A stretch of 64,000 nucleotides of DNA from Spirochaetia bacterium (GTDB lineage: Bacteria > Spirochaetota > Spirochaetia > CAKZLE01). Shown in pieces: positions 1 through 42,984 of the stretch. The notes under the pieces are model-generated. The model ran no database searches. It was not told the origin of the DNA and saw only the letters and a list, made by a program, of their open reading frames with translations. The first letter of the stretch is position 1; each line of letters starts with the position of its first letter. Where the stretch lies: positions 416,001 to 480,000 of the forward strand of contig OY782041.1 in the NCBI GenBank assembly GCA_963677595.1. Reading direction: 5' to 3'. The position numbers were made by a program, and so were the translations under genes.

Positions 1-704
1 ACAAGCAGGTTGAGTTCCCTGAATGCCAGATCGAACTCATGGACTGAATGGTCCTCTCTCTTGGTGAGGAGTTCCTCGATGAGCGGCAGGCGCATCGGTC
101 TCTCACCGAACCCGGTCGCGACGAGTCTGGGATCCAGGCACTTCCTGTCAGCAGAGAACCACATGGAGAGGGCGAAGCTCATGATCACCTTCGAGGCACT
201 GGACTGCCGAACACGCCTGACAGCGCTTGCCTTCGAGTTTATGGGGATGAGGACTGCCGTGATCAGGTCGCCCCTGCTGGAATCCACGTACTCCTCGACC
301 GTGACGGTCGACCCGTCGGCAAGTTCGACTCTCGCCCCGAGCACGATCAGGCTCGGGACCAGCGCTGAATGGGTCCAGCATGCCGCTATATTCCCCCCGA
401 CCGTGGCCATGTTCCGGACGCTGCGCGAGTAGATCCCCCGGGCAGCCTCCTTGATCACCGGCATGACCAGGGTCGAGTCGATGAGTTCCTGCAGCCTGAC
501 GGCAGCACCGACCCTCAGGAGACCTCCCTCCAGGGATATCCCCCCCAGCCCCAGCTCACCGATCGATATCACGTTCGTATAGGGGGAAGCTGTATCCATG
601 TGGTTGATGCTCGTCCCCCCGGCATAATAGCCGGCATGACTGTAGTGTTCGTACAGGGAGACCGCCTCCTCAACCATCTGAGGTTGTTTAAAGTTCCTAA
701 TCAT
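1..704 (-). CDS. Xanthine dehydrogenase-family FAD-binding subunit (XdhB/YgfM/CoxM-like); C-terminus runs off the window
   Basis: Not in the ORF track. Read manually on the minus strand from ATG at 704 with GGAGG upstream: MIRNFKQPQMVEEAVSL..YYAGGTSIN..RNMATVGGNIA. AGGT and RNxAT(V/I)GGN are the FAD-binding motifs of this family. Confidence 0.8.
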   Translation of the reverse strand, partial: MIRNFKQPQMVEEAVSLYEHYSHAGYYAGGTSINHMDTASPYTNVISIGELGLGGISLEGGLLRVGAAVRLQELIDSTLVMPVIKEAARGIYSRSVRNMATVGGNIAACWTHSALVPSLIVLGARVELADGSTVTVEEYVDSSRGDLITAVLIPINSKASAVRRVRQSSASKVIMSFALSMWFSADRKCLDPRLVATGFGERPMRLPLIEELLTKREDHSVHEFDLAFRELNLL

Positions 705-775
705 CCAACCCTCCAAATCCTTTTCATATCTGTCCCCTGATTGTAGCCTGAATCTCCGTGAACTGCCATGGGCCT

Positions 776-1447
776 TTACTGTGCATCGCTCAAATAATCG
801 AGCAGCGAGACCTCCTCACCGGGCTCCTTCACGATCACCTCATGGTCCCACTCCTCGGTGAAGAGTTTCAGCATGAGGCGCTGGTCTCCCGTGATCTCAT
901 GGTACTCAAGATCGTAGAGTTCACAGAATTTCCTGGCAAGCTCCTTGTAGGGAGTCGTATCATACTCCCCGGTATCCACGACGGCTGCCCGCTCGTAGTG
1001 TTCCAGGACCATCCTGGTATACTGCTGCGCCAGCTCCTCCCCGTACCGTTCGATGTACTTGTCATACTCGAGCAGGTGGTAGGTCCCGTCCTCGGACTCG
1101 ATGAACCGTTTCGTGAGGAAGAGCGTCCCGATCGCCTCGTTCCGGTGTTTCTCGAAACAGGTTTGGGAGCCGCAGAAGAGGGCTATGCAGTCGTGGATCC
1201 TCGGGAGTATGAGACGGTGGTGCGCAGAGGTGAGCCCCACCGTCGCATTCGAGCAGAGACCGTAGCCGAGCACGATCGTATCCCCCTTGCCGGGAATCCC
1301 GTCGATCACCTCCTGGAGGTGTGACCTGAGGAGGTCCGGCTTCTCATGCAGGGAGAAGGATTGTCTCATGATGATCATATCATCCGGGATGATCGACCTG
1401 GATTCTACCAGGATCGTATCACAGATGATGAGGTAGGTCTTGCTCAT
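776..1447 (-). CDS. DUF1638-family protein (typical neighbour of corrinoid methyltransferases)
   Basis: Motifs LHEKPDLLR..LQEVID, LGYGLCSNATVGL, PRIHDCIALF and YIERYGEE. Confidence 0.75.
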   Translation of the reverse strand: MSKTYLIICDTILVESRSIIPDDMIIMRQSFSLHEKPDLLRSHLQEVIDGIPGKGDTIVLGYGLCSNATVGLTSAHHRLILPRIHDCIALFCGSQTCFEKHRNEAIGTLFLTKRFIESEDGTYHLLEYDKYIERYGEELAQQYTRMVLEHYERAAVVDTGEYDTTPYKELARKFCELYDLEYHEITGDQRLMLKLFTEEWDHEVIVKEPGEEVSLLDYLSDAQ

Positions 1448-1517
1448 ACTCCATTACTCATTAGTATTTACTCGTTCGCTGCAGGGCTCTCACCCCCTGC
1501 AGCGTATTCCCGCGGGA

Positions 1518-2213
1518 CTAGATGTTCAATGCCCCGATGATGATCGGGTCTGCCGCACCGCCTGCGGCTCCCCTGGTCACCAGCTGCTTGCAGAGGTCCA
1601 CGCATTCACTTGCGGTGTTCGAATACCCGTCTGCCTTGATCATCGTCGTCCACTGCGGGGTGACAGGTCCTCCTCCGAGGATGACCTGGTACTTCTCCCG
1701 CATGCCCATGGCACCGAGGGTCTCGATGAGTTCCTTCTGGTACGGGAGGCTGGTGGTGATCAGGGTCGAGCAGGCGATGATGGTCGCGTTCTCACGCTGT
1801 GCAGCATCGATATACTCCCTGACGCTCACGTCGATCCCGAGGTCGATGACCTTGAAGCCGTTAGCCGAGAGGATCGCCTTGACCAGGTTCTTCCCGATAT
1901 CGTGGTGGTCACCAGCCATCACGCCGAGCACGACCGTGCCGGAATCTGCACCTGCACCACCGTCTTCCCGGATCTTCGCAAGGAGCACGTCCATCGCCAT
2001 GGTGGCAGCGTCACCGGCGAGCATCAACTCAGGGAGGAAGGCCTCCCCGTTCTCGAACTGCTCACCCATCAGGTCCATCGCAGCCTGGATGCCGCCCCGG
2101 ATCATCTCGAGGGGGTCTATGCCCTCCGCGATACTCTCCTGGGCGATCTCGAGTGCGTCATCCTCTTCACCTTCGATGACTGCATCATATAGTCTTTTGA
2201 TCAATTCGCTCAT
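1518..2213 (-). CDS. Cobalamin-binding corrinoid protein (MtmC/MtbC/MttC-like)
   Basis: Cap domain (GEAFLPELM) plus B12 motif GDHHDIGKNLV, DLGIDV and GGGPV. Confidence 0.93.
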   Translation of the reverse strand: MSELIKRLYDAVIEGEEDDALEIAQESIAEGIDPLEMIRGGIQAAMDLMGEQFENGEAFLPELMLAGDAATMAMDVLLAKIREDGGAGADSGTVVLGVMAGDHHDIGKNLVKAILSANGFKVIDLGIDVSVREYIDAAQRENATIIACSTLITTSLPYQKELIETLGAMGMREKYQVILGGGPVTPQWTTMIKADGYSNTASECVDLCKQLVTRGAAGGAADPIIIGALNI

Positions 2214-2248
2214 ATCTGTATTTCTCCTAAACTCTTGTTACTTCGTGA

Positions 2249-3634
2249 TCAGATTGCATCAAGCGGCAGGCCGAACTCTTTCGCCCTGGTCCGTACTTCG
2301 TTGTATGCAGCCTCTGCTTCCGGCAGCGGGCGGAAGTTCTTGAGGTCCCACACTTCCTGTACCGGCTTCCCGATGTTCGGGGTCTTTATATTCGCCTCGA
2401 ATTCCGGGAGGAACTCATTAGCCAGGTCGTTCACGGCCGAGAGGTCCATACCGGATGCAGCATGGGCAACCTCAGCACACCATCGGCAGTCGAGGGGTGA
2501 GAGGTAGTCATTGAACTTCCCGCCTGCTGATCTCGGGCCTGTCGAGAAGGATGCACCTGAAGCGGCGATGATCGATACACCTACGAGCGTCTCGTAGAGC
2601 AGTTCCTTCGTTCCCGGACCCGACACCTGGTTCGCGATACCGTGGGTCAGGAGATGGGTGTTCCTGCTCAGAGCCTGGTGGGTCATGCTCAATGCCCAGA
2701 GGCCTTCCCGGTTCACGTTGGAGAGGTACCTGATGTCGTAGAGCTCCCCGCCGCCGACGGTCGAGAAGAGTACGGCATACTGGAGCAGTGACGCCGCGAT
2801 GCTCGAGATGACCGCACCCTCGGGAGGTCCCGGCATCCCGCCGATCATTCCCGGAGAACCGGCGAATACCATACCGCCCATGGCGAGGGTATGTACTACC
2901 TTGTGCATGGTCTGGTTGTTGATCTTCATCTCCGAAGGATAGAGGATCAGTGAGAGGTCGGTGGTATAGAAGTTGTCCCGTGTCCCATAGCAGAACTGGC
3001 CGAACTCGGTGACCGCGGAGATGTTCCCGATACCGGGCATACCTTCTCTTCCTGCTTTTCGCCGGAGCACCCGGTGCATACGTCCCTGCTCATAGCAGAG
3101 CAGGGTCTCTGACGGGTCACCGGGGAGGGCCTCCAAGCCGTTGATCGCAGTGAGCGACCCGCTCTCGAGCAAGTCGACCTGCGGCTGGCGTGCGATCCCT
3201 TCAGTGATCCAGGGCCATGCCTCTTCCGACATGGTGATCCCCAGCGATGACCCGAAGAGCATCGGGGTGGGGTCTGAGGGGGTACGTGACTTCATGATCC
3301 GCTTGTCGTGCCCGAACCCGAGCTCGACCTCTGACGGTGCGAGGTGGAGCGTGGTCACGAGCTCCTCTTCATCTATCTTGATGATCCTGTCGCGTGCCTC
3401 GTTGAGCATGCCGAGTTCCAGGGCAAGTTCGAAGCCTGCCTTGTAGAACTCATCGGCAAGCTCCATATCGGTGTTGACAGGGTTCTCCTTGTCAACGGTC
3501 TTCTGCAGGTTGTACTTCTTCAGCATCGACTTGACAGCCTTGGGGACTCGCTTCACATCCCAGTCATGGGCGCTGCAGTACTCACCTTCTCGAGACCTGC
3601 GCAGGATCTCGGTAAGATCAGGTTTCTGTTTCAT
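2249..3634 (-). CDS. mtmB: Monomethylamine methyltransferase MtmB-family protein lacking pyrrolysine
   Basis: Full-length similarity, by recall, to Methanosarcina MtmB (GExC..DWD, KAGFE, AGRxGM, GP.T.E.L.E, EVA.A..G). No internal stop. Start placed at ATG 3634 after GGAGAA. Confidence 0.85.
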   Translation of the reverse strand: MKQKPDLTEILRRSREGEYCSAHDWDVKRVPKAVKSMLKKYNLQKTVDKENPVNTDMELADEFYKAGFELALELGMLNEARDRIIKIDEEELVTTLHLAPSEVELGFGHDKRIMKSRTPSDPTPMLFGSSLGITMSEEAWPWITEGIARQPQVDLLESGSLTAINGLEALPGDPSETLLCYEQGRMHRVLRRKAGREGMPGIGNISAVTEFGQFCYGTRDNFYTTDLSLILYPSEMKINNQTMHKVVHTLAMGGMVFAGSPGMIGGMPGPPEGAVISSIAASLLQYAVLFSTVGGGELYDIRYLSNVNREGLWALSMTHQALSRNTHLLTHGIANQVSGPGTKELLYETLVGVSIIAASGASFSTGPRSAGGKFNDYLSPLDCRWCAEVAHAASGMDLSAVNDLANEFLPEFEANIKTPNIGKPVQEVWDLKNFRPLPEAEAAYNEVRTRAKEFGLPLDAI

Positions 3635-3755
3635 ACTATTCTCCTTAACCAAATGTTTGACTTCTTCATCTCAGGAGGCAGCGGCCTCCCGTGTTTATCC
3701 TCGCATACGGCTTCCTGTCGTGCAGTATCGTATATGAGCTATCCATCTTCACCAA

Positions 3756-3804
3756 ACAAGCTCCTGGTTTTAGACTTGTCCCGGACAAGGTTGCGAATGC
3801 TTGC
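3756..3804 (-). promoter_or_regulatory. Putative cis-regulatory RNA motif, copy 1 (mtmB leader)
   Basis: CGCAAC-[CUUGUC CGG GACAAG]-UCUAAAACCAG, shared with the copy at 10591-10645. Confidence 0.5.
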
Positions 3805-3847
3805 AGGTCGGCCTACGCCTTGACGTCGATCTCCCTATCCTACCTCC

Positions 3848-5704
3848 TTACTCATTCGCTGCACCCTCGAAGTACATATTCATAGCCAGGTCCCTGGAAA
3901 AACCCTTCCGACCTGACAGGTCGATGATCCTCATCTCATTCCTCATGGTCTCGCACCGGTCCCGGAACTCCCTGCTCAGCAGGGCAGAGACGGCGCTCCT
4001 GCCCGAAGTGTTCCCGACACAGACCACCCGGTCGGCAAGCTGCGGCGGGATCAGACCGATCTCCGCAGCACTCGATATCCTGATGCGGCTGCCGAAGCCC
4101 CCGGCGATGTAGAGACGGCTGACCTCATCAGCCGTGATCCCTGCTTCATCGAGGAGCGCCTCGATCCCGGTACGGATCGCTGACTTGGCAAGCTGGATCT
4201 CCCTGATGTCAGCCTGGGAGAGGTAGACGGTCTCCCCGGAGATGGTGAAGGCAGGTTTCCCCTTCACTTCAGCCATCCTCGAGGATAGCGCATGTTCACC
4301 TCTGGCAAAGCGTCCTTTCCGGTCGACGAGTCCTTCCCTGACGAGGAGTGCGGTCACATCGAGCACCCCGGATCCGCAGACGGCTGCGGGGACCTGGTCG
4401 TGGATGGTCGTGAACCGCAGCGCTTCCCCGTCATAGGATACACTGTCGATCGCCCCGGAGACCCCGCCTGACCCGCAGGAGAGGTTCGCCCCCTCGAAGG
4501 CAGGGCCGGCGGCAGTCGAACAGGCGAAGAGTCCTGCTGGACTTTTCAGGACGATCTCCCCATTGGTCCCGATATCGACGAAGAGGGAACACTCATCAGC
4601 TGTGTCCAGATGGACCGCAGCAGCCCCCCCCACGATATCGGCCCCGATGTACCCAGAGGCACTCGGGAGCAGGTAGACGGAACATCCTTCAAGTTCGCTG
4701 AAGAGATCCCGGATGATCTGAGAGGAGGTGAAGACCGGATTGAACGGTACCCTGCTGATGCTGCCTGCATCGATCCCGAGCAGGAGATGCAGCATGGTGG
4801 TGTTCCCTGCGACGGCACAGGAGGTGACCTGCCCGGTCATGATCCCGTTCCGCCCGCAGAGCTCCAGGATCATCTCCTGCAGCTGTTCGGTGATCACACG
4901 TGCGAGCTCTTCAGAGCCTTTTGCCTTTATCAGGGTATAGCCGATACGGGCGATGACATCGGCACCCGCGATGTGCTGTGCGTTCAGGGCCGATTCGGTA
5001 TCGATGATCTCCCCGGATGAGAGGTCCACCAGGTAACATGCTACGGTAGTCGTCCCGATATCGACTGCGATACCGTAGAATCGTTCCACGCCCTCAGCAG
5101 GGCAGACTGAGATGACAGTCCCGTCGCAGATATGTGCCCAGATCCCTGCCGGCTGCTTCATGTCCATGAGATGCCGCATCATGACCGGCAGCTGGTGGAG
5201 CACGACAGGAGAGACATCCGCCACGGCGATACCGCACTGGTCAGACAGGGCTTCTATGACCCGCAGGGCACCATCTCGGTTATCGTCGAAGGTCGGGACA
5301 CTCATCATGACACGGAAGCTCTCGACAAGCCGTCCCTGCAGGTGGTCCTCAGACTCTCCTGAGAACCCGGTCTCGACCTCCATGATGCGCTGTTCTGCAG
5401 CTTCGGCAATGGTGAGGTCACCCTCAGCAGTCGCATAGCAGGCAAGCCTGATACCCGCGATGATATCATCCTCACTGAGGTGCTGTTCCTCCTGGGGTCC
5501 CATCGGGGAGACTTCACCGGAGATGATGCGGATCCTGCACTTCCCGCAGGTCCCCGCTCCCCCGCAGGGACTCGTATACCCGAAGGCCTGTCCGCTGTCT
5601 GTTATCATGCTGCTGATCACGGTATGGAGATCGGTCCCGAACGCTGCCTTGGTAGTGAGTTTCTGGGGTATCATGGTTATACTGCAGCTGCGTGCCTCAG
5701 ACAT
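3848..5704 (-). CDS. Reductive activator of corrinoid proteins (RamA/RACo; 2Fe-2S + ASKHA ATPase)
   Basis: N-terminal CGGAGTCGKC..RLAC ferredoxin, then DIGTTT, GADVIARI, GNTTM, DIGTNGE, AAGPAFEG, CGSG and AGGFG. Confidence 0.92.
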   Translation of the reverse strand: MSEARSCSITMIPQKLTTKAAFGTDLHTVISSMITDSGQAFGYTSPCGGAGTCGKCRIRIISGEVSPMGPQEEQHLSEDDIIAGIRLACYATAEGDLTIAEAAEQRIMEVETGFSGESEDHLQGRLVESFRVMMSVPTFDDNRDGALRVIEALSDQCGIAVADVSPVVLHQLPVMMRHLMDMKQPAGIWAHICDGTVISVCPAEGVERFYGIAVDIGTTTVACYLVDLSSGEIIDTESALNAQHIAGADVIARIGYTLIKAKGSEELARVITEQLQEMILELCGRNGIMTGQVTSCAVAGNTTMLHLLLGIDAGSISRVPFNPVFTSSQIIRDLFSELEGCSVYLLPSASGYIGADIVGGAAAVHLDTADECSLFVDIGTNGEIVLKSPAGLFACSTAAGPAFEGANLSCGSGGVSGAIDSVSYDGEALRFTTIHDQVPAAVCGSGVLDVTALLVREGLVDRKGRFARGEHALSSRMAEVKGKPAFTISGETVYLSQADIREIQLAKSAIRTGIEALLDEAGITADEVSRLYIAGGFGSRIRISSAAEIGLIPPQLADRVVCVGNTSGRSAVSALLSREFRDRCETMRNEMRIIDLSGRKGFSRDLAMNMYFEGAANE

Positions 5705-5710
5705 AGATAC

Positions 5711-6652
5711 TTACCGTTCCTCCCTGAAGTAGGGGACGCCGAGGCTCTGCGGGGCATTCCCCCGGGCCTTTCGCCTCATCGAGTCGAGCACCAGGACGAT
5801 GATCGTCATGACGTAGGGCAGCGAGTCAAGGACGTAGATCGAGACCGGCAGGTCGAACTGCTGCAGGCGGAATCCCACGATATTGAGCCCGCCGAAGAAG
5901 AGCGCACCGAGGAACGCCCGGTAGGGGTTCCATTTGGAGAAGATGACCAGCGCCACAGCGATCCATCCCCGCCCGGAGATGATCGAGTCCTGCCATGCAG
6001 GTACATAGATCAGGGAGAGGTACCCTCCGGCGAGGCCGCAGAGCACCCCGCCGATGGCAAGGTGGATGTAGCGGTACTTGATGACCGAGATCCCGAGGGA
6101 GTCTGCAGCCCTCGGGTTCTCTCCGACCATCGACCCGTTCAGGCCGTATCGTGTCTTATAGAGATAGATCCCGACGACCACGATCAGCACATACGTGATA
6201 TAGATCATGTAGTCCTGGTTGAAGAGGATCTCACCGATGACCGGGATATCACCCAACAGGGGGATCTTCACCTTCACGAAGGTGGAGATGATCCTCTCTG
6301 GGGCCCTCGTCCCGATGATCGGCGTCCCGATGAAGCCGGCGAAGCCGGTACCGAACATCGTCAGGGTGAGCCCGGTGACGATCTGGTTGGCCCGCAGGGT
6401 GATGGTGACGAAACCGAAGATCATGGCCCCGAGCACACCGGCGAGGGCCGCTGCGATGAATGACAGGAGTGGGCTCGCTGTCTGGAGGGATACCATGAAC
6501 CCGATGATCGCACCCATGTACATCATACCCTCGACACCGAGGTTGAGCGAACCGCTCTTCTCGGTGACGAGCTCCCCCATCGTGGCGAGGAGGAGCGGGG
6601 TCCCGGCAACCACGGCGGCCCCGAGAAAACAAACGAACCAGTTCAGGTCCAT
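5711..6652 (-). CDS. ABC permease, nucleoside/CUT2 family (YufQ/NupC-like)
   Basis: EKSGSLNLGVEGMM, GENPRAADSLGI, GRGWIAVALV and P.SLG.PY. Confidence 0.92.
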   Translation of the reverse strand: MDLNWFVCFLGAAVVAGTPLLLATMGELVTEKSGSLNLGVEGMMYMGAIIGFMVSLQTASPLLSFIAAALAGVLGAMIFGFVTITLRANQIVTGLTLTMFGTGFAGFIGTPIIGTRAPERIISTFVKVKIPLLGDIPVIGEILFNQDYMIYITYVLIVVVGIYLYKTRYGLNGSMVGENPRAADSLGISVIKYRYIHLAIGGVLCGLAGGYLSLIYVPAWQDSIISGRGWIAVALVIFSKWNPYRAFLGALFFGGLNIVGFRLQQFDLPVSIYVLDSLPYVMTIIVLVLDSMRRKARGNAPQSLGVPYFREER

Positions 6653-6653
6653 A

Positions 6654-7730
6654 TCATGCGCCTCCCTTTGCTGAAGTCACTCGCTTCGATTCCCGGATCA
6701 CCCGGTACTTGAGGAAGAACTCGCTTCCCAGGACGAAGAAGAGGATGAGTCCCTGCAGCAGCGATGCTGCTGCCTGGGGTATCTGGAACACGGTCTGGAT
6801 ATAGGATCCTCCCTCCACCATGACGGCAAAGAGGAAGGAGACGACCAGGATGGCTATGGCATTGAGCTGGCCGAGCCAGGCGATGATGATCGCGGTATAC
6901 CCTACCCCGTTGCTTACATCTATACTCAGGGTCATGTTCACCCCGGAGACCTGGATCATACCGACGATCCCGCAGATCCCCCCGCTGATGAAGAGGGTCC
7001 CGAGGATGATCTTCGAGGTAGGCATGCCCGCATAGCGGGCTGTCGCCTCGTTCTCCCCGATGACCCGGATCTCATAGCCTCGTTTGGTGTAGTTGATGAA
7101 GAGGTAGATGAGGACGACCAGCACGGGTACGAGGATGATCCCGATATGGACGCCGAACAGCTTGGGCAGCTGGGCGTTCTTCACGAGGTTCGGGATCTTC
7201 GGGTAGCCGAATGCGTGTTCATCCTTCCAAGCCACGTACTGCAGGTAGGTGATCCACTTCAATGCCACGTAGTTGAGCATGAGGGTGAGGATCGTCTCAT
7301 TGGTCTTGAACTTCACCTTGAGGAATGCCGGGATCAGTGCCCACAGCCCGCCGCCGACGAGTCCCGCAGCCACCATGAGCGGCAGCAGGATGATCTTCGG
7401 GAGCGACTGGAAGTTGAGGCCGACATAGGTGGCGGCAGCTGCCCCCATCATGATCTGCCCTTCCCCGCCGATATTCCAGAACTTCATCCTGAAGGATAAG
7501 CCTATCCCGAGGGCAGTCAGGGCATAGGGGATGGTCCTCGTGAGGGTCTCCCGGACACGGTAGCCGGATCCCAGGCCCCCGTCTATCATGGAGGCGTAGA
7601 CCTCGAACGGGTTATGCCCGAGGAAGAGCAGGAGGAATCCCGAGAGGGTGAATGCAAGAAGGATCGCATAGACGCGCACGCGGATCTTCTTGGCCATGGA
7701 ACAGGTTTCAAGCGGTACGATCCTAGCCAT
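6654..7730 (-). CDS. ABC permease, nucleoside/CUT2 family (YufP/NupB-like)
   Basis: WNIGGEGQ, NETILTLMLNY and GENEATARYAG. Confidence 0.92.
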   Translation of the reverse strand: MARIVPLETCSMAKKIRVRVYAILLAFTLSGFLLLFLGHNPFEVYASMIDGGLGSGYRVRETLTRTIPYALTALGIGLSFRMKFWNIGGEGQIMMGAAAATYVGLNFQSLPKIILLPLMVAAGLVGGGLWALIPAFLKVKFKTNETILTLMLNYVALKWITYLQYVAWKDEHAFGYPKIPNLVKNAQLPKLFGVHIGIILVPVLVVLIYLFINYTKRGYEIRVIGENEATARYAGMPTSKIILGTLFISGGICGIVGMIQVSGVNMTLSIDVSNGVGYTAIIIAWLGQLNAIAILVVSFLFAVMVEGGSYIQTVFQIPQAAASLLQGLILFFVLGSEFFLKYRVIRESKRVTSAKGGA

Positions 7731-9249
7731 TGCTGCACTCCTCCCCGATCGTCGTCATCAGGACTCCCAGTTCATTCTTCGTGATCTCGTCAGGGTTCGC
7801 GATCCCTGAGACCTGTCCGCAATAGAGGACCATGACCCGGTCGCAGACTTCCAGCAGCAGGTCCAGATCCTCTGCCAGGAGCAGGACCCCGGCCCCTCTG
7901 GCCTTCTGCTCATTGAGCAGTTCGATGACCTTGTGGGTGACCCCGAGATCGAGTCCCCGTACGGGGTAGGAGGCGATGAGGACCTTCGGGTCACTCATGA
8001 TCTCACGCCCGATGAGTATCTTCTGCAGGTTGCCGCCCGAGAGAACGCTGATCGGCCGGTCGATCCCGGGATGCATGACATCGAGGGATTCGACGAGCCG
8101 TTCGGTCATCTCGTAGGCACGCTTCGAGTCGATGAAGATCCCCTTGCCTGCATGGTAGTCACGGAGCATGACGTTGTCGACGAGGCTCATGCTGCCGACC
8201 AGTCCCATCCCGAGCCGGTCCTCAGGCACGAAGTTGATCGGGACGACACCCTGCCGGAAGATCTCACTCGCGCTCTTGCCTGCGATCTCCTTCCCGTTCG
8301 CCTTCACCGACCCGGAATCTATCTTCTGCAGGCCTACCAGGGCCTGGCAGAGCTGTTTCTGGCCGCTCCCCGATACCCCGGCCACGCCGAGGATCTCGCC
8401 GGCATGGAGGTCGAAGGAGACGCCCCTGAGCTGCCGCATCGCTGCGGCATCATTTACGTGGAGGTCACTCACCTCCAGGACGACGTCTCCAGCGGGGACC
8501 CTCAGCCTCGGGAACTCCATCTTCATGGACTTCCCGACCATGATATCAGCGAGCTCCTTCTGGGTCGTCTCTGCCGTACTGAGGGTCTTCACGACCCTTC
8601 CCTTGCGCATGATGGTGACACGGTCGCTGATCTCCATGACCTCATACAGCTTATGGGTGATGATGATCGCTGTCTTACCAGCATCACGCATAGTCCGGAT
8701 GATGGAGAAGAGCCGTTCGGTCTCCTGCGGGGTCAGTACGGTGGTTGGTTCATCAAGGATGAGGATCTCAGCCCCCCGGTAGAGGACCTTGAGGATCTCC
8801 AGTGTCTGCTTCTGCCCGACGCCCATGTCCGAGACATAAGCTTCCAGGTCCAGAGAGAGACCTGTCTCCCGGCAGATCTCAGCGATCCGTTTACGGCAGC
8901 CCTTCCTGTCAAGGAAGAGTGAGCCGTTCGGCCCCGCTATGATATTCTGCCAGGCCTTCATGGCATCCACCAGCTTGAAATGCTGGTAGATCATGCCGAT
9001 GCCTGCATCGATGGAGTCTTGGGGAGAGCCGAAAGTCTCCTCGCTGCCGTCGATCATGATGGTCCCGGCATCGGGGGTGTAGATCCCTGAGAGGATGTTC
9101 ATCAAGGTACTCTTGCCCGCCCCGTTCTCGCCGAGGATGGCATGCACCTCTCCCCGCCTGATGTCCAGGTCCACATCGTCATTGGCCTTGAGGGGACCGA
9201 ATTCCTTGGTGATCCCCCGCATGCTGATCACGACTTCATTACTCACCAT
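7723..9249 (-). CDS. ABC ATPase with two NBDs (nucleoside/sugar importer, YufO/NupA-like)
   Basis: GENGAGKST, LDEPT and LSGGNLQK. Start placed after GGAG. Confidence 0.93.
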   Translation of the reverse strand: MVSNEVVISMRGITKEFGPLKANDDVDLDIRRGEVHAILGENGAGKSTLMNILSGIYTPDAGTIMIDGSEETFGSPQDSIDAGIGMIYQHFKLVDAMKAWQNIIAGPNGSLFLDRKGCRKRIAEICRETGLSLDLEAYVSDMGVGQKQTLEILKVLYRGAEILILDEPTTVLTPQETERLFSIIRTMRDAGKTAIIITHKLYEVMEISDRVTIMRKGRVVKTLSTAETTQKELADIMVGKSMKMEFPRLRVPAGDVVLEVSDLHVNDAAAMRQLRGVSFDLHAGEILGVAGVSGSGQKQLCQALVGLQKIDSGSVKANGKEIAGKSASEIFRQGVVPINFVPEDRLGMGLVGSMSLVDNVMLRDYHAGKGIFIDSKRAYEMTERLVESLDVMHPGIDRPISVLSGGNLQKILIGREIMSDPKVLIASYPVRGLDLGVTHKVIELLNEQKARGAGVLLLAEDLDLLLEVCDRVMVLYCGQVSGIANPDEITKNELGVLMTTIGEECSNG

Positions 9250-9334
9250 ATACTCCTGCATCTTATACGAAGAAGATGCTGAGGAATGAGCGGGGACCGC
9301 TCATTCCTTTGCATCATATAAACTGACTTGCTGG

Positions 9335-10411
9335 TTACTCGATAGAACCGATGACGCCGTCAACGAGGAAGCTCATGCCGAGCTTGTCGCCGTCGCTCAT
9401 GACTTCGCCGTCTGCCAGTACGAGGTTGCCCTGGTTGTCATACAGCGGGCCTGCGAAGACCTCGAAGGAACCGTCGATGATCTTTGCCTGTACCTCATCC
9501 ACGATCGCCTGTGCCCCTGCAGGAGCGTTCTTGCCGAGCGGTGCGAGCCGAACGACATCGTCTTCCATGCCGCCCCAGTAGTTGCTTGCGTCCCAGGTGC
9601 CGTTCATGACTTCCTGAGTCACTGCCACATAATAGGGATCCCAGTTCCAGTAGGGAGAGGTGAGGCATGCTTCAGGTGCAGCTGCGTTCATGTCCGCATG
9701 GTAGCCGACACCCCATACACCCCTGGCCTCTGCTGCCTGGAGGTTCGCAGGAGCAGTCTGGTGCTGGGCGATGACGTCACAGCCCTTGTCGATGAGTGCG
9801 AAGGTTGCTTCCTTCTCGTTCGGCGGGTTGTCCCAGTCAAGGGTCCAGGTCACTTCGACCGTCACGTCTGGGTTCACGCTCTTTGCACCAAGGGTGAAGG
9901 CGTTGATTCCCCGGACGACTTCCGGGATACTGAAGGCTGCGATATACCCGAGCTTGTTGGTCTCGGTCTTGAGTCCTGCCACGATACCGGAGAGGTAACG
10001 AGCCTGGTAGATCTTTCCGAGGTAGTTGACCGCATTCTCTGTCTGCATGTATCCGCCGCAGTGGAAGAAAGCGACTTCCGGATGCTCTGCAGCGACTTCA
10101 AGCATATAGTCCATGTAGCCGAAGCTGGTAGCGAAGATCATCTTGGCACCCTGGGCGATCATGTCCCTCATGACTTTCGCACTCTCCTGGGTGTTGGGGA
10201 CGTTCTCTTTGTAGAGGGTCTCCACGCCGAGCTCCTTCTCAATAGCCAGCCTTCCTGCATTGTGCTGCTGGGTCCAGCCCATGTCACCGATAGGTCCGGT
10301 GAAGACGAAACCGACCTTGAACACCTCTTCTTTCTTCTCTTCCTGAGCCCCGCCCGCGAACAGCGGAGACAGCACCAGCAGGATCGCTAAGAGACATAGC
10401 ACTTTCTTCAT
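9335..10411 (-). CDS. BMP-family ABC substrate-binding protein (purine/nucleoside-type)
   Basis: Signal peptide, then GPIGDMGW..HN.G, TSFGY, YQARYLSG and PEVVRGINAF. Confidence 0.92.
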   Translation of the reverse strand: MKKVLCLLAILLVLSPLFAGGAQEEKKEEVFKVGFVFTGPIGDMGWTQQHNAGRLAIEKELGVETLYKENVPNTQESAKVMRDMIAQGAKMIFATSFGYMDYMLEVAAEHPEVAFFHCGGYMQTENAVNYLGKIYQARYLSGIVAGLKTETNKLGYIAAFSIPEVVRGINAFTLGAKSVNPDVTVEVTWTLDWDNPPNEKEATFALIDKGCDVIAQHQTAPANLQAAEARGVWGVGYHADMNAAAPEACLTSPYWNWDPYYVAVTQEVMNGTWDASNYWGGMEDDVVRLAPLGKNAPAGAQAIVDEVQAKIIDGSFEVFAGPLYDNQGNLVLADGEVMSDGDKLGMSFLVDGVIGSIE

Positions 10412-10590
10412 ACCCTAAACTCCTTACGTGTAGCCAAAATATTCTCATCCGCCATACAGGCGGCCTTGAGTCTATCCAAAAGACATCCACATACACCGCT
10501 GAATCCACGGCTATGGACATACCTGCTACCACACAGGTCTGATACTGAGACGGATTCTGTTCGTTAACATTGATCCACACTAGATGTGCG

Positions 10591-10645
10591 ACAAGGAACT
10601 GGCTGTTTTAGACTTGCAAAGCCTGCAAGGTTTCGTGGTTACTGT
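10591..10645 (-). promoter_or_regulatory. Putative cis-regulatory RNA motif, copy 2 (BMP leader)
   Basis: CGAAAC-[CUUGCA GGCUU UGCAAG]-UCUAAAACAGCCAG. Confidence 0.5.
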
Positions 10646-10963
10646 GTATACATAAAGTGCTCATGTATCAGTTGACCATAATAGATTCTGAACCATATCG
10701 TACCATCTGCTCAATAATTATGCAATCTTTTTCATTATATTACATTTTGTTGTCTGATTTTACGATTCAGTACCTACAGGATGTCATGGTGTTCCCACCA
10801 ATCATGTCTTATCTTAAATAAATGCAATTTTCATGCCATCAATTATATAGAGCATATTATCAACAAAACGGGGAGATTTTGCAACAATTTTTAGATGATA
10901 ACGAACAATATTCTCATGATGTTGCAGAACAAAACCTATCCTGCAACATCACGCATCACGTAA

Positions 10964-14164: not shown

Positions 14165-14237
14165 CGGGGTGTTGCCTAGTGGCTAAGGCGCCTGCTTTGG
14201 GAGCAGGAGATCGGAGGTTCGAGTCCTCTCACCCCGA
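14165..14237 (+). tRNA. tRNA-Pro(TGG)
   Basis: Acceptor stem CGGGGTG/CACCCCG, anticodon arm CCTGC-TTTGGGA-GCAGG, T-loop GTTCGAG. CCA not encoded. Confidence 0.95.
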
Positions 14238-14246
14238 TTAACATAT

Positions 14247-14320
14247 GCGCTCATAGCTCAGCTGGATAGAGCAACGGCCTTCTAAGCCGTAGGTCGCAGG
14301 TTCGAACCCTGCTGGGCGTA
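14247..14320 (+). tRNA. tRNA-Arg(TCT)
   Basis: D-arm TAGCTCAGCTGGATAGAGC, anticodon arm ACGGC-CTTCTAA-GCCGT, T-loop GTTCGAA. Confidence 0.95.
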
Positions 14321-14688: not shown

Positions 14689-14823
14689 TTGACTCCTCTA
14701 TCTGTATAAGCTACTATGGATTACGGAGATTGGATTTAGTTCAATGAAAGGGAAGAGGCAGGAGGAGGCTCCTGCCGAGTACCACTCCACAAGCAAAACG
14801 CATCCATTTCGGGTGCGTTTTCT
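14689..14823 (+). ncRNA. Putative ~100-nt small RNA with its own promoter and terminator
   Basis: TTGACT-17-TACTAT (14689-14717), hairpin GGCAGGAG/CTCCTGCC, and terminator AAAACGCATCC/GGGTGCGTTTT. Confidence 0.45.
14794..14823. terminator. Bidirectional intrinsic terminator at the CRISPR trailer end
   Basis: GC-rich stem flanked by A4 and T4-5 tracts. Confidence 0.65.
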
Positions 14824-14887
14824 CATATCTAAACCGACGCACGAGAGTCGCCTCAGAACGCTCCGACCACCGAATAGGGTCATTAAC

Positions 14888-16563
14888 CGATTCATCCCCG
14901 CAGGTGCGGGGAACGGGACTCAATCTCGCCCCTTGCTGACTCAATATACGGTTCATCCCCGCAGGTGCGGGGAACAGTTTCACATATTCAAGATTTTTAT
15001 ATGCATGATCGGTTCATCCCCGCAGGTGCGGGGAACAGATCAGGTATGTCCAGGAGCAGACGAACTACCGCGGTTCATCCCCGCAGGTGCGGGGAACAGG
15101 TTCTGGACGAGCAGGTCGGTGAGCGCAAGAGCGGTTCATCCCCGCAGGTGCGGGGAACAGACCATCTTCATAAGTTCCGTCAATCTCAAGAACGGTTCAT
15201 CCCCGCAGGTGCGGGGAACAGGTGCAGCGCTACAGTTAGCTATTTGACTACAACGGTTCATCCCCGCAGGTGCGGGGAACAGTCCGCATCACGCTTGATG
15301 TCGATCCCCAAAATCGGTTCATCCCCGCAGGTGCGGGGAACATTCGTAAATGTGTCCAGGATCGGTCTCAAACTACGGTTCATCCCCGCAGGTGCGGGGA
15401 ACAGTCCGCATCACGCTTGATGTCGATCCCCAAAATCGGTTCATCCCCGCAGGTGCGGGGAACATTCGTAAATGTGTCCAGGATCGGTCTCAAACTACGG
15501 TTCATCCCCGCAGGTGCGGGGAACAGTACCCGGCTTTCTCCATACCTTCCATACAGTCCGGTTCATCCCCGCAGGTGCGGGGAACAGACAGCTACTATGC
15601 AGATATTGCCTTCGCATCTCGGTTCATCCCCGCAGGTGCGGGGAACAGGTCTTTGTATGATCCGAGTTCACGAATGGCAGCGGTTCATCCCCGCAGGTGC
15701 GGGGAACAGAAGGTGTACTCCCGTTTCGGCTGCAGTATTATCGGTTCATCCCCGCAGGTGCGGGGAACAGAGCTCTTTGCCATACTGCAGCGTATGGGCG
15801 ATCGGTTCATCCCCGCAGGTGCGGGGAACAGGATCTCACACTGATCTGTGAGAGAGTTGTACCCGGTTCATCCCCGCAGGTGCGGGGAACAGGCGGCGGC
15901 AGGAAAGATGGAAAACTTTGCAGACGGTTCATCCCCGCAGGTGCGGGGAACAGGCGGTCACTGAGGAAAAGGACAAGTATACATCCGGTTCATCCCCGCA
16001 GGTGCGGGGAACAGTGCACCCATTCAGGGGCCTGCGTGAACAGGTTCGGTTCATCCCCGCAGGTGCGGGGAACAGGAAAACTCATCCTCAATACCGCAGT
16101 ACTTGGACGGTTCATCCCCGCAGGTGCGGGGAACAGAATCTCTCAGTTCACGAACTCATGCAAGGTTGCGGTTCATCCCCGCAGGTGCGGGGAACAGGTA
16201 TTCTACGGAGTACCTAAGGTTCAGGAGAGCGGTTCATCCCCGCAGGTGCGGGGAACAGTTGATTGGCTCGTCGATGACTGCGGTAAGTTCCGGTTCATCC
16301 CCGCAGGTGCGGGGAACAGGTAAAGATCATCTTTGCTCTTGTATGGGTAATCGGTTCATCCCCGCAGGTGCGGGGAACAGTACGAGCGTACGTACTCGTA
16401 CTACAATCTCGGCGGTTCATCCCCGCAGGTGCGGGGAACAGCTTTGTCCCCGCGAGTGCGTTCTGTTCATATTCGGTTCATCCCCGCAGGTGCGGGGAAC
16501 AGACCTCAGCCGAAGAATCTGATCATCGTTCTGGCGGTTCATCCCCGCAGGTGCGGGGAACAG
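14888..16563 (-). CRISPR. Type I-E CRISPR array: 28 repeats (29 bp) and 27 spacers (32 bp)
   Basis: Plus-strand repeat CGGTTCATCCCCGCAGGTGCGGGGAACAG at a strict 61-bp period, resembling the E. coli I-E repeat. The degenerate repeat at 14888 marks the trailer, so transcription is on the minus strand. Confidence 0.99.
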
Positions 16564-16703
16564 ACTTACGAGTAAATTATACTCATATAATGAGATAAAT
16601 CAACTTAAATTTTCTACCATGATTTTTCTATCGGTTACTATCATATGCACGCTTTAAATAGCTATGTCAAAAACGGGGCGTGTCTTACTCAAACAGGTTG
16701 AAT
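16564..16703 (-). promoter_or_regulatory. CRISPR leader
   Basis: AT-rich segment between cas2 and the first repeat, containing TGGTAGA as in I-E leaders. Confidence 0.75.
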
Positions 16704-17907
<1,204 letters not shown>

Positions 17908-17917
17908 GTTTGCTTTC

Positions 17918-18580
17918 CTAAGATATCCCTGCTAGTGACAGGAGACCGAACCCAAACCCTTTAGCACGCCCAAACCCATTCACGAGGCCTTCAATCGCAA
18001 GTTCAGGGTTGTTGATACGTATGATCCCATCAAATAGGACCCCACCGATTTCTAACCTGCTCTTCTGACTGGTGCCCAGTTTCCGTATCACGGTAACAGG
18101 TTCTCTGATACATTCCAGAGTCTGAAGTGTGATCTGTAACGCCCCGAATTTTCGCTTCATCCAATCATGACATTCATTCTCATCCTTCAAGGCCACTCTT
18201 GTTCCCCTCCTCCCATATTGACCTGAAGGGATACTCTTTGTCGGATTGGCTCGCAACCGAAATCGATAAGACTTATATCTCTCCAGATTGATTGTTAATC
18301 TCTTAGTTTCAATCGTTCCGCATGAAGAAAGTAGAGAATCAGTATTAATTCTAGCATCATATCCATGCTGGATTAGAAGCGTGGGGACAACCCGTTGATA
18401 ACTATCCAAAGCAACTTCCATACGATAAAGAACTCTATTCTCAGTTCTTGTATCACCTACTAGTCTGTATACGGCTTGATGCACTAGATATGGGTCAGAA
18501 GCCAACTTGATTGTCATAGGATATGCCGGAAGCAGCTGTACCCTTGTTAGACCTATTTGACATGTATATGTATTCAGCAT
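17918..18580 (-). CDS. cas6e: Cas6e (CasE/Cse3)
   Basis: DPY.VHQ, FRLRANPTK and the C-terminal GFGRAKGFGFGLLSL G-loop. Confidence 0.93.
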   Translation of the reverse strand: MLNTYTCQIGLTRVQLLPAYPMTIKLASDPYLVHQAVYRLVGDTRTENRVLYRMEVALDSYQRVVPTLLIQHGYDARINTDSLLSSCGTIETKRLTINLERYKSYRFRLRANPTKSIPSGQYGRRGTRVALKDENECHDWMKRKFGALQITLQTLECIREPVTVIRKLGTSQKSRLEIGGVLFDGIIRINNPELAIEGLVNGFGRAKGFGFGLLSLAGIS

Positions 18581-18595
18581 TATTACCTCTCCACA

Positions 18596-19294
18596 TCATC
18601 CGATGATTTTAACATTCCGATAAATGGTTTTCACATAACGAGTTTTGTATGTCCTCTTATAAATATCAAAAGATCCGGGGATATCTAATCTCGTCTCTCC
18701 TCGCTTCTCTTTATCCGGAACTATAAACCTGACAGATTTACTATCAGATTCATCTAAATCACAATCAAGATCAAGTGTAAGCCTCATCCCAAAGTCACGT
18801 GATATCGGGATCTCTTTCTCTAAGATCTCCTCAGGAGATTTGTTGGTCAGAAACAGGCTTTGCATCTCTGGGTACAAAATCGGACAGGAAGGGACATATG
18901 ATTTTCTCCCAAAGAAGGGTGGATAAACGGGACAGGACAGTGCATCAAATATTCTACGAAGAAGCGTTTCTTCTCCCTCTAAAGCTACATGGAATTCCGC
19001 ATCAGATAAGAAATCCCTATGGATCAACTGATCCTGCTTAGTTCCACTAGCTGTAAGAACCCCTTGAGCAGTCTGAAACTCCTGCTGAAGGATTCCTTCC
19101 CGATCAACACGTACTGTCATCTCCAAGGAGCAGAGAAATGATATATCCTCTGAACGTTCTATTCCCATTGCAGCTGCTATGAGACCAACAATACCAGAGA
19201 AAGTCGGTTCCCGTTCCGTATCACGATACTCAAAACGACTTCGGCTGCCCCATGACTGCATGGGGGCAGCAATGTGTAATAGAATGAATGACAT
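18596..19294 (-). CDS. cas5e: Cas5e (CasD)
   Basis: APMQSWG..R.T..EPT.SGIVGLIAAAMG and GRKS..P..P. Confidence 0.93.
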   Translation of the reverse strand: MSFILLHIAAPMQSWGSRSRFEYRDTEREPTFSGIVGLIAAAMGIERSEDISFLCSLEMTVRVDREGILQQEFQTAQGVLTASGTKQDQLIHRDFLSDAEFHVALEGEETLLRRIFDALSCPVYPPFFGRKSYVPSCPILYPEMQSLFLTNKSPEEILEKEIPISRDFGMRLTLDLDCDLDESDSKSVRFIVPDKEKRGETRLDIPGSFDIYKRTYKTRYVKTIYRNVKIIG

Positions 19295-19296
19295 AA

Positions 19297-20439
19297 TTAG
19301 TTATTCCACTTTGAACTCTTAGAAGCTACAGCTTTTTCTACTGTTTCCAGAGTCTCCGCTAAAGAACCATCGCTTTTTGAGATAGTGAATCCAGTTTTTA
19401 TTACTGAGTCAGACACACCATAAACTTTAGCTAAAGCTTCCCAATAGTTTATCATAGTTTCGGATGTCACTTCTTCAAGAGATTTATCAGAATGTGATGT
19501 TACAGGTTTTGAGAAAGCACCTGCCAGATTCCACAGTTTACCATCATCCCGTATTAGGACTAAAACAGAGAAAGGTGGATTATGGGCTGCCATGGAATTC
19601 TGCTTACCGGTAGGTATAGACTCGATGAATGATCTAATAAAACCGCCAACCGTTGCTGAGGTAAGATAAGAGTTGAACCCTAGATTGCTGTACAAAGAAG
19701 AAACATCAATATTGGCATACCGATAATGGCAAGACCCATTCATCTCTGTATATCCGATCATCCCAGCTCCAGTCTCATCTTCAGCATTCAGATCATCAAC
19801 TGCGGTGAAGTAATCAATATCCATCGAGACTTTATGAGATGAGATACTATGGGCGACCTGACACGATGCGTCAACATTCAGTGTTTTATCATCTGCAAAC
19901 ATTCGTCCGAACAAAGCAATGTCGGCAGCATAGGCTTTACCTGTATTTGAAAAGATCTTCTTCATTTCTTTTATAATCTTCTTACGAGCTGAATCATTTG
20001 TATTTTCCATTAGCAGTATATCTTTGTTTACCACCAACTGACTTACAAGTTCTTGGATATCCTGCTCTCCTATATATAGAAGATACTCCGTATCTGTCTT
20101 TTTTTTAATCTTCACGCCAATAATCTCAGTAATGCTTATCTCACTTAATTTCACAGCTTCTTCTTCATCCAATGCAAATGAGGATACCAGTTGCTGTATG
20201 ATCTCACCCATGATCTTCTTTGTTCTGATTCCGGTATCACCACCAGCACCTTTCACTGTTTCAGTAAATACAGGATTGGTTCTAATTGCTCGTTTCCATG
20301 CCTGACTACTGATTCTAGCTCTCCGTACTCCTCCAAACACACAGTCCTTGGGACTCCCGACATCATCTCGATTCAGGTTGTTTGTTGTAAAATTCTGAAT
20401 TGCATGAATCTCAACATATAATCTTCTTTCATTTGCCAT
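19297..20439 (-). CDS. cas7e: Cas7e (CasC/Cse4)
   Basis: NLNRDDVGSPK..FGGVRRARISSQ, DIALFGRM, DYFTAVDD and PTGKQNS. Confidence 0.96.
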   Translation of the reverse strand: MANERRLYVEIHAIQNFTTNNLNRDDVGSPKDCVFGGVRRARISSQAWKRAIRTNPVFTETVKGAGGDTGIRTKKIMGEIIQQLVSSFALDEEEAVKLSEISITEIIGVKIKKKTDTEYLLYIGEQDIQELVSQLVVNKDILLMENTNDSARKKIIKEMKKIFSNTGKAYAADIALFGRMFADDKTLNVDASCQVAHSISSHKVSMDIDYFTAVDDLNAEDETGAGMIGYTEMNGSCHYRYANIDVSSLYSNLGFNSYLTSATVGGFIRSFIESIPTGKQNSMAAHNPPFSVLVLIRDDGKLWNLAGAFSKPVTSHSDKSLEEVTSETMINYWEALAKVYGVSDSVIKTGFTISKSDGSLAETLETVEKAVASKSSKWNN

Positions 20440-20461
20440 AGTGTAATCCTCCAATGTGATT

Positions 20462-21073: not shown

Positions 21074-21077
21074 GTTC

Positions 21078-22703: not shown

Positions 22704-22735
22704 ATGCTAAATCCTCCTAAAGATGTAGAACACTT

Positions 22736-41696: not shown

Positions 41697-41697
41697 C

Positions 41698-42126: not shown

Positions 42127-42140
42127 AAGTTAAGTATATT
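42113..42140. promoter_or_regulatory. Perfect 12-bp inverted repeat over the umuD start
   Basis: AATATACTTAAC-ATAA-GTTAAGTATATT. Confidence 0.6.
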
Positions 42141-42891: not shown

Positions 42892-42984
42892 GGGACGTTC
42901 CCCCTTCCCCCCAATCCTATCACAGATGCAGATACCATACACTGATACCTACCGCTTTTTTCCGGTTTGTGGTATACTCCAGTC

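Follow-up and report, generated by a model that had tools for sequence, protein, structure and literature searches.

An eleven-gene spirochaete operon with a pyrrolysine-free MtmB homolog as a candidate system for corrinoid-dependent demethylation of N-methylated purines

Introduction

Anoxic habitats receive methylated purines that stem from RNA turnover, from DNA repair, and from the metabolism of caffeine, and to our knowledge the N-demethylases known for these compounds need oxygen. How such methyl groups might be removed without oxygen is the question raised by a stretch of 64,000 nucleotides (nt) from a Spirochaetia bacterium (GenBank assembly GCA_963677595.1, contig OY782041.1, positions 416,001 to 480,000; hereafter the window), at whose left end a minus-strand operon places a homolog of the methylamine methyltransferase MtmB beside a corrinoid protein, a reductive activator, an ATP-binding cassette (ABC) importer, and a xanthine dehydrogenase (XDH)-family enzyme. 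Judged from gene content and sequence comparison, we think it reasonably probable that this unit carries out the corrinoid-dependent demethylation of an N-methylated purine base.

Results and Discussion

An eleven-gene operon encodes a three-component corrinoid methyltransferase

Profile searches recovered nine co-oriented minus-strand genes between positions 1 and 10411 of the window, in the families named by a preliminary description made from the DNA letters, and the run proved to comprise eleven genes, two of which lie to the left of the window (Table 1). The same description had pointed to the sequence left of the window as the place where molybdenum (Mo) and Fe-S subunits and a tetrahydrofolate (THF) methyltransferase might lie. 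A 958-residue XdhD-type Mo/Fe-S gene, overlapped by 4 nt by the flavin adenine dinucleotide (FAD) subunit gene, is indeed found there, whereas no standalone THF methyltransferase is present and a 455-residue UroD/MtaA-like gene stands in its place, 28 nt beyond the Mo/Fe-S gene and followed by a terminator-like hairpin. Spacers within the run measure −8 to 73 nt, with the exception of 213 nt ahead of mtmB. An endonuclease III gene beyond the UroD-like gene was ruled out as a member of the unit, given the hairpin between them and its non-adjacent position in relatives.

The complete order from the BMP-family binding protein gene to the UroD-like gene was retained in four other spirochaete genomes (L005, L007, L008, and L009), a further copy (L006) was broken by a contig end, and two more operons (L010 and L011) differed only by loss of the FAD and Mo genes; this conservation across spirochaete relatives is more than chance. 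Near the contig end in L006 the BMP ortholog is divided into two open reading frames (ORFs; L006:177-1254), which probably reflects a frameshift or an assembly error. A donor methyltransferase, a corrinoid protein, and an activator are encoded together, which makes the feature a three-component corrinoid methyltransferase, a known type of system.

The MtmB homolog is free of pyrrolysine and lacks the acidic pocket residues

The MtmB homolog scored 219 bits against PF05369 (cut-off 25), its frame is free of internal stops, and it matched Methanosarcina barkeri MtmB at an E value of 1e-42. The predicted model (predicted local distance difference test score 87.8) superposed on the structures 1nth and 1l2q with a template modeling score of 0.88 at 24% identity, so that family and fold are shared with the MtmB/MtmC/RamA system of M. 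barkeri. However, residue 202 (461-residue form), which aligned to pyrrolysine 202 of PDB entry 1l2q, is isoleucine, encoded by ATC at positions 3031-3029, and the activator is of the RACo rather than the RamA type. Where M. barkeri MtmB has E205, E229, E259, and Q333, which we take to be the amine-binding residues, the homolog has I, L, G, and I, respectively. With isoleucine in place of pyrrolysine and the acidic pocket replaced, the protein lacks the defining features of a pyrrolysine-dependent monomethylamine methyltransferase; a profile search of the source genome (4.3 Mb, 95.4% complete) gave nothing above the cut-off for PylS. The ORF finder placed the start at TTG 3652; because homologs begin at ATG 3634, the latter is probably the true start. 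Forty-six aligned rows with at least 50% identity formed one clade (FastTree support 0.98), in which glutamate at 205, 229, or 259 was found in none of the 46 and aspartate at 259 in 20.

The preliminary description took characterized MtmB to need pyrrolysine, but one without it is already known. MtqB of Methanococcoides methylutens Q3c, characterized in 2026 in a study whose tree holds 1,061 members, possibly with the present clade among them, demethylates choline and tetramethylammonium and is weakly active on methylamine (11 nmol/min/mg) (PMC13044021). By its published description, the MtqB/MtqC system resembles the present one in its pyrrolysine-free MtmB, cognate corrinoid protein, activator, and three-component transfer, and it delivers the methyl group to coenzyme M in a methanogen (PMC13044021). 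In contrast, the clade considered here is bacterial and purine-linked, with its own importer and molybdoenzyme.

Two further MtmB sequences were observed. A second paralog in the source genome (G000:C1:4025621-4026967; L046:15619-17088), of 28% identity, has no corrinoid gene within ~15 kb and is followed by an ECF-type (energy-coupling factor) transporter. An MtmB match at G125:C87:3152-4525 (L129) was reported with one TAG; its full-length ORF starts just inside the match, and the TAG is probably upstream of the start and not a pyrrolysine codon.

Linkage to purine-type genes is specific to this MtmB clade

A single GTDB scan yielded 41 loci of the MtmB clade in 36 genomes, spanning Spirochaetota, Kiritimatiellae/Verrucomicrobiota, Chloroflexota, Acidimicrobiia, and a few other groups, and an XDH-family Mo gene, a TRZ/ATZ-type deaminase gene, or a BMP gene was counted as a linkage marker. 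At least one marker was present in 34 of the 41 loci, from four phyla (31 of 36 when counted per genome), in 29 of the 32 loci of at least 11 kb, and in all 19 loci of the tight clade (at least 64% identical). An Mo gene or a deaminase gene occurred in 30 of the 41 and a deaminase-family gene in 23. None of 20 control MttB loci, chosen for contig span from matches in 11 of the test genomes, carried a marker. A second control took 20 of the 45 matches listed for other Spirochaetota, all belonging to distant MtmB clades; two of these loci had markers and none had BMP, their neighbors being choline-kinase-like, acetyl-CoA synthase, and symporter genes. Further distant MtmB loci of the test genomes gave markers in three of eight, and random 21.4-kb windows of the source genome in 8.0%. 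The preliminary description would have counted a lack of conserved BMP/XDH linkage against its proposal; with deaminase genes included among the markers, linkage was conserved (34/41 versus 0/20 for MttB).

The adjoining enzymes vary among lineages. Eleven adjoining amidohydrolases passed the 8-oxoguanine deaminase cut-off (NCBIfam, 19 tested of 30), and of the eight adjoining Mo genes in non-spirochaete loci none passed TIGR03313 and one passed PucD; different lineages have thus recruited different Mo enzymes beside this MtmB clade. The most telling locus for the purine link is that of genome G012, in which one strand encodes MeTr, MtmB, the corrinoid protein, RACo, BMP, ABC components, 8-oxoguanine deaminase, YgfM, XdhD, YgfK, SsnA, YgeY, and YgeW in this order. 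Its MtmB is 71% and its BMP about 70% identical to those of the window, and its XdhD, YgfK, SsnA, YgeY, and YgeW score above their cut-offs.

Some Anaerolineales and Acidimicrobiia genomes contain 11 to 21 MtmB matches, many in islands where they are interleaved with Mo enzymes, deaminases, cytosine-deaminase-like genes, and BMPs, and their pocket residues vary. Such paralog islands with varied pockets would be expected for a set of position-specific demethylases. Three islands, at G016:C1:145000-205000 (L058-L061), G014:C1:1-52000 (L067-L069), and G021:C13:80000-128000 (L063-L065), hold ~10 to 14 MtmB paralogs each, interspersed with corrinoid proteins, Mo enzymes, deaminases, BMP importers, and GntR-UTRA regulators; their pocket residues are paralog-specific and conserved between genomes. 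Separately, distant pyrrolysine-free MtmB clades (L113-L132; Spirochaetota, mostly family f19) were present in all but 2 of the 17 genomes of a single family, where they adjoin choline/ethanolamine-kinase-like and acetyl-CoA synthase genes and are candidates for choline or phosphocholine demethylation.

The importer resembles binders of free purine bases

The nearest solved relatives of the BMP protein were 3s99 (E value 7e-79) and AtzT (1e-78), with the TmpC/PnrA nucleoside type far behind (2.6e-5). AtzT binds guanine (110 nM), adenine (2.5 μM), and 2-hydroxyatrazine, and the ligand of 3s99 was modeled as adenine (PMC6834077). An importer of purine or nucleoside type had been proposed from the DNA letters; the protein looks like a binder of free bases rather than of nucleosides (E value ~1e-78 to AtzT/3s99). 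With pocket numbering based on an inferred offset to AtzT, the aromatic sandwich and the equivalents of Ser97, Phe98, Glu165, and Trp194 are kept, the stacking aromatics, Ser97, Phe98, and Glu165 being conserved in all eight BMP orthologs. Five of the seven named AtzT contact residues are kept or conservatively changed, and the other two differ in all eight orthologs, with His for Asn218 and Thr/Ser for Asn220; in addition, Gly replaces Asn169. A BMP paralog of the source genome (52%) has Asp at the Asn220 position. As a guess, a smaller residue at Asn220 could give room for a methyl group.

The molybdoenzyme points to reductive urate breakdown

The operon Mo subunit scored 1316.9 bits against TIGR03313 (cut-off 1101.9) and is 56% identical to E. 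coli XdhD, with Glu606 conserved. The E. coli XdhD-YgfM enzyme is a urate reductase that yields 2,8-dioxopurine, and a substrate-orienting role of Glu606 has been proposed from a model (PMC12507026). The two systems share fused Fe-S and Mo domains, Glu606, and an upstream FAD partner, but the operon copy lies outside the ygfK/ssnA cluster and is joined to a methyltransferase module. The notion that the unit oxidizes the purine ring is therefore doubtful, the TIGR03313 assignment and Glu606 pointing to the urate-reducing XdhD type, and the operon enzyme likely reduces a urate-type ring. For the FAD subunit, the best-scoring family was TIGR03312 at 134.5 bits (over the 238 residues inside the window; cut-off 241.5); the canonical FAD copy of the source genome, at 111.9, likewise falls under the cut-off.

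The source genome encodes a canonical ygfK-ssnA-ygeY-xdhD-ygeW cluster at 3.96-3.98 Mb, with yqeB, yqeC, and selD close by, and because this cluster holds another xdhD, the operon XdhD is an extra copy. Two xdhD copies were likewise found in each of G001 to G005, and one in G006 and G007, whose operon lacks xdhD. Asp450 of other XdhD copies is Glu in six of six operon copies, and Y726F occurs in five of six. The source genome also carries ~10 XDH-family Mo genes, with clusters at G000:C1:4105000-4175000 (L054-L056) that hold XdhA/PucD-like enzymes, SsnA-, YgeY-, and YgeW-like paralogs, PreA-like reductases, and BMPs.

A sulfur compound as the possible methyl sink

No standalone THF methyltransferase was found in the source genome, the pterin-binding domain occurring only in MetH, and neither acetyl-CoA synthase nor MttB was found there; Fhs and methylene-THF reductase (MTHFR) are encoded. 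Because the pterin-binding domain occurs only in MetH and acetyl-CoA synthase was not found, an acetogenic route is probably not used. The UroD/MtaA-like protein scored 137.5 bits against TIGR01463 (cut-off 235.4) and carries a Phe-x-Cys motif, a second Cys, and a conserved CxxC tail; it may use a sulfur acceptor. In S-methyltransferases the corresponding motif is His-Cys-Cys (PMC10418091). Type 1 mlp clusters share with the operon an MtaA-like protein, a corrinoid protein, an activator, and the missing folate methyltransferase (PMC10418091). However, they have at least two MtaA-like genes with His-Cys-Cys, whereas the operon has one, in which Phe takes the place of the zinc-ligand His and a CxxC tail is added, and its likely donor enzyme is MtmB.

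Methyl sinks differ among relatives. Among the 41 loci, MeTr occurs in 10, a weakly assigned MetH-activation-like domain in 18, and UroD-like genes of different subfamilies in 13. Only unnamed Atlas protein clusters were found for the UroD-thioredoxin type. Two further genes of this type (60% and 50% identical; G000:C1:298500-305000 and 1912600-1917400; L050 and L051) adjoin CobW-like GTPase genes in the source genome, and one of them is accompanied by a separate RACo, a PocR-AraC regulator, and a corrinoid protein, though by no recognizable donor methyltransferase.

Proposed pathway

The eleven genes would form an oxygen-independent salvage unit that passes the bare ring to reductive urate breakdown. 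The ABC system would import the free methylated purine, and RACo, perhaps with DUF1638, would hold the corrinoid as Co(I). The pyrrolysine-free MtmB would then pass the N-methyl group of the imported base to the B12 protein; the easiest donor would be an oxidized purine akin to a methylurate or a methyl-dioxopurine, because the anion left behind makes a fair leaving group. The MtaA-like protein would pass the methyl group to a sulfur acceptor, which is proposed because the genome is without a standalone folate methyltransferase and acetyl-CoA synthase. The second XdhD/YgfM copy would act on a urate-type ring, either still methylated or just demethylated, by reducing its C6, and ring breakdown would be completed by YgfK, SsnA, YgeY, and YgeW, whose genes lie elsewhere. 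Additionally, a hairpin motif in the spacers may act as a riboswitch-like sensor of the substrate or product.

A candidate regulatory RNA precedes the BMP and mtmB genes

Reading the spacers revealed a motif of roughly 60 nt, composed of a core AACCTTG, a variable hairpin, and then CAAGTCTAAAAC. The source genome has exactly two copies, ahead of the BMP gene and ahead of mtmB, and each of G001 to G007 has two at the same positions. A motif model trained on 15 of the 16 spirochaete copies identified sites outside the training set in three genomes of Anaerolineales (Chloroflexota), weakly (E values 0.05 to 0.08) and just 5' of the corrinoid-mtmB pair; a fourth came from a pattern scan, and no copies were reported in 16 other genomes searched with the model. 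The Anaerolineales copies have a much longer inner stem and an A-U pair in place of G-C, and in the wider region of two Anaerolineales islands the motif occurs once each, only ahead of the ortholog of this MtmB. Of 61 relatives, the seven genomes with a close ortholog have the motif, all seven having served for training; the remaining 54, among them five with only distant MtmBs, gave no copy. Rfam gave no match, strictly filtered searches with the model R2 added nothing from a further 149 genomes in the order of G016, and the exact pattern was absent from 400 genomes of the phylum. An exact-pattern scan of metagenomes gave 56 matches, of which two were linked to the operon and the rest look like chance.

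Over 20 copies, 92.5% of inner-stem cells are paired (slid controls at most 47.5%), 22 cells show two-sided change, which affects three pairs, and 0 of 500 shuffles scored as high, the structure having been derived from these same, related sequences. A GAAA tetraloop is present in one copy. Folded singly, four or five of six copies are predicted to form an outer stem, which is only 61% paired in the automatic alignment. Such a conserved structure, with covariation in the inner stem and a position 5' of related genes, has the general features of a riboswitch, and we regard the motif as a likely regulatory RNA whose class has yet to be described. That it senses a metabolite is slightly less than an even chance on these comparisons, a protein-binding or processing element being the alternative. 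A fixed-spacing protein operator was set aside, as the two conserved boxes are separated by a stretch whose length differs by over 20 nt among copies yet stays paired. The xanthine-I (NMT1 motif) riboswitch is a similarly small two-stem RNA with a conserved junction, located before purine-oxidation genes (PMC7373994), whereas the candidate motif is without an Rfam match and occurs in other hosts and before other genes.

Two further upstream elements were seen in relatives. Only the 3' A-rich box, without the hairpin, is kept 5' of the corrinoid gene in Kiritimatiellae/Verrucomicrobiota loci (L012:3390-3430, L013, and L014:9180-9215), possibly as a variant of the motif. In Acidimicrobiia-type loci without the motif (L023, L024, L025, and L026), the region ~40-70 nt 5' of the corrinoid gene conserves a short inverted repeat that looks like a transcription-factor site.

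Alternative substrates and directions

Several observations weigh against the demethylation of an N-methylated purine. Pterins, pyridines, and triazines, too, are handled by members of the XDH, BMP, and TRZ/ATZ families. The linkage counts come from loci that share ancestry, and most marker queries were derived from the test loci themselves. The BMPs that accompany this MtmB in tight-clade relatives are only 25-35% alike and the Mo enzymes there are non-orthologous, and for this reason the neighbors do not fix one substrate. The operon XdhD copies formed no supported clade in a tree of 15 rows, which includes a wrong-frame row (G004_b) whose motifs were re-read separately, and XdhD is a dispensable partner, given that the operons of L010 and L011 have neither the FAD nor the Mo gene. 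Deaminase and nucleosidase genes are absent from the spirochaete operon, and the UroD-like protein is missing the His of the His-Cys-Cys zinc site. With respect to the RNA motif, the two copies of the window fold no better than shuffles (z scores −0.58 and +1.03), and the motif was not found 5' of the enzyme in 8 of the 19 tight-clade loci, two of which are cut short upstream.

All purine-context evidence would fit equally if the donor were an O- or S-methylated purine (O6-methylguanine, or the 2-methoxy- and 2-methylthio-adenine types) or if the MtaA-like protein itself took such a methyl group, and the UroD family includes O- and S-demethylases (PMC10418091), with a methylthioadenosine phosphorylase-like gene and an S-adenosylhomocysteine hydrolase gene near the module in L014. 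However, the characterized MtmB-fold and MttB enzymes take N-methyl groups (PMC13044021), and the UroD-like genes are confined to their 13 loci and are of mixed subfamilies, and we regard this explanation as unlikely, albeit the foremost of the alternatives. A slightly smaller chance attaches to a non-purine N-methyl heterocycle hydroxylated by the Mo enzyme, such as trigonelline or N-methylnicotinamide types, a methylated pterin, or a pyrimidine. Cationic N-methyl pyridines would, on chemical grounds, be pre-activated like quaternary amines, and cytosine-deaminase-like and UbiD genes occur in the islands of relatives, but the Mo subunit belongs to the XdhD type and keeps Glu606, the nearest solved relatives of the BMP hold guanine and a purine modeled as adenine, and G012 joins the module and the core urate genes in one run. 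It is improbable that deaminases free methylamine from exocyclic N-methyl purines (N6-methyladenine or N2-methylguanine) and that MtmB captures the amine without pyrrolysine, even with a deaminase-family gene in 23 of 41 loci and with the weak methylamine activity of MtqB (PMC13044021). The spirochaete operon lacks the deaminase such a scheme needs, and islands keep at least 10 paralogs with differing pockets, which would be needless for one small amine. The I, L, G, and I residues at positions 205, 229, 259, and 333, presumably the amine-binding positions, likewise argue against it.

MtqB is the only pyrrolysine-free MtmB with a demonstrated function, on quaternary amines (PMC13044021), which also counts against a purine substrate and would suit a choline or tetramethylammonium demethylase sitting among purine genes by accident. 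We consider this very improbable, since choline-kinase-like and acetyl-CoA synthase neighbors, which would be expected of such an enzyme, belong to other MtmB clades and not to this one, and a purine-type importer lies within the run. Finally, corrinoid methyl transfers are reversible, and L023 and L030 have CobT- and CobS-like genes close to the enzyme, as would suit a unit working in the opposite direction to methylate a purine, such as for a methylated cobamide lower ligand; with an importer and deaminases, XdhD, YgfK, and SsnA indicating uptake and breakdown, and cob genes in only 2 of 41 loci, this is the least probable of the explanations. Demethylation of an N-methylated purine base by the corrinoid system remains our preferred reading, and the earlier proposal of a corrinoid-dependent demethylation of a methylated heterocycle is supported in that form by clade-specific linkage with controls and by a purine-base-type pocket, without its ring oxidation.

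Coordinates and other features of the window

Table 1. Positions of the operon genes and candidate RNA copies (window numbering unless a contig is given)
Feature	Position	Strand	Basis
BMP-family binding protein, free-purine (AtzT/3s99) type	9335..10411	-	PF02608; structure-relative matches; pocket residues
ABC ATPase, two nucleotide-binding domains	7723..9261	-	profile search
ABC permease	6654..7730	-	PF02653
ABC permease, second	5711..6652	-	PF02653
RACo-type reductive activator of corrinoid proteins	3848..5704	-	PF14574, PF17651, PF00111; Fer2 + RACo middle + ASKHA
Non-pyrrolysine MtmB-family methyltransferase, 461 residues	2249..3634	-	PF05369; alignment; model superposition
Corrinoid (B12-binding) protein	1518..2213	-	PF02310 + PF02607; TIGR02370 185.9 bits, under 215.3 cut-off
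DUF1638 protein, one copy in genome	776..1447	-	profile search
YgfM-like FAD subunit, 269 residues, end ~93 nt beyond left edge	1..716	-	FAD_binding_5
XdhD-type Mo + Fe-S subunit, 958 residues	G000:C1:413034-415910 (L001:17034-19910), outside window	-	TIGR03313
UroD/MtaA-like methyltransferase, thioredoxin-like CxxC tail, 455 residues	G000:C1:411638-413005 (L001:15638-17005), outside window	-	PF01208
Candidate cis-regulatory RNA copy 1	10588..10648	-	~180 nt upstream of BMP start; motif model
Candidate cis-regulatory RNA copy 2	3750..3808	-	RACo-mtmB spacer, ~115 nt upstream of mtmB ATG; motif model

Elsewhere in the window, positions 14700-25340 hold a repeat array resembling clustered regularly interspaced short palindromic repeats (CRISPR), after which comes a cas operon resembling type I-E (Cse1, Cas3, and a separate HD gene). 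Two tRNA genes lie at 14165-14320, between a Tex gene and the repeat array. At 40458-44400, an ImpB/MucB-family polymerase gene, an SRAP protein gene, and an exonuclease I-like gene adjoin in an SOS-type cluster.

Significance

The literature searched, which covered few subscription papers, yielded no corrinoid route on methylxanthines or methylated purines and none combining MtmB with xanthine dehydrogenase; the substrate class, the reductive-urate tie, and the RNA motif are undescribed in it. A preprint reports that N-methyl carbon of caffeine reaches methane in sediment with ~85% of the caffeine left, and in its available text Methanosarcina is credited, the enzyme is left unnamed, and an Anaerolineae taxon is enriched 8.7-fold (10.64898/2026.01.06.697959). 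The operon supplies named candidate enzymes for anaerobic methylpurine demethylation and ties into the urate pathway solved in 2025. More tentatively, a large, uncharacterized branch of pyrrolysine-free MtmB enzymes may constitute a position-specific toolkit for the anaerobic demethylation of methylated nucleobases and methylxanthines, with islands of at least 10 paralogs in Chloroflexota and with this ortholog under a new methylpurine-sensing riboswitch class. The RNA motif offers a second route to the identity of the substrate and could add a riboswitch class, and, if the proposed demethylation is true, the chemistry of MtmB enzymes without pyrrolysine would widen from quaternary amines to heterocycles.

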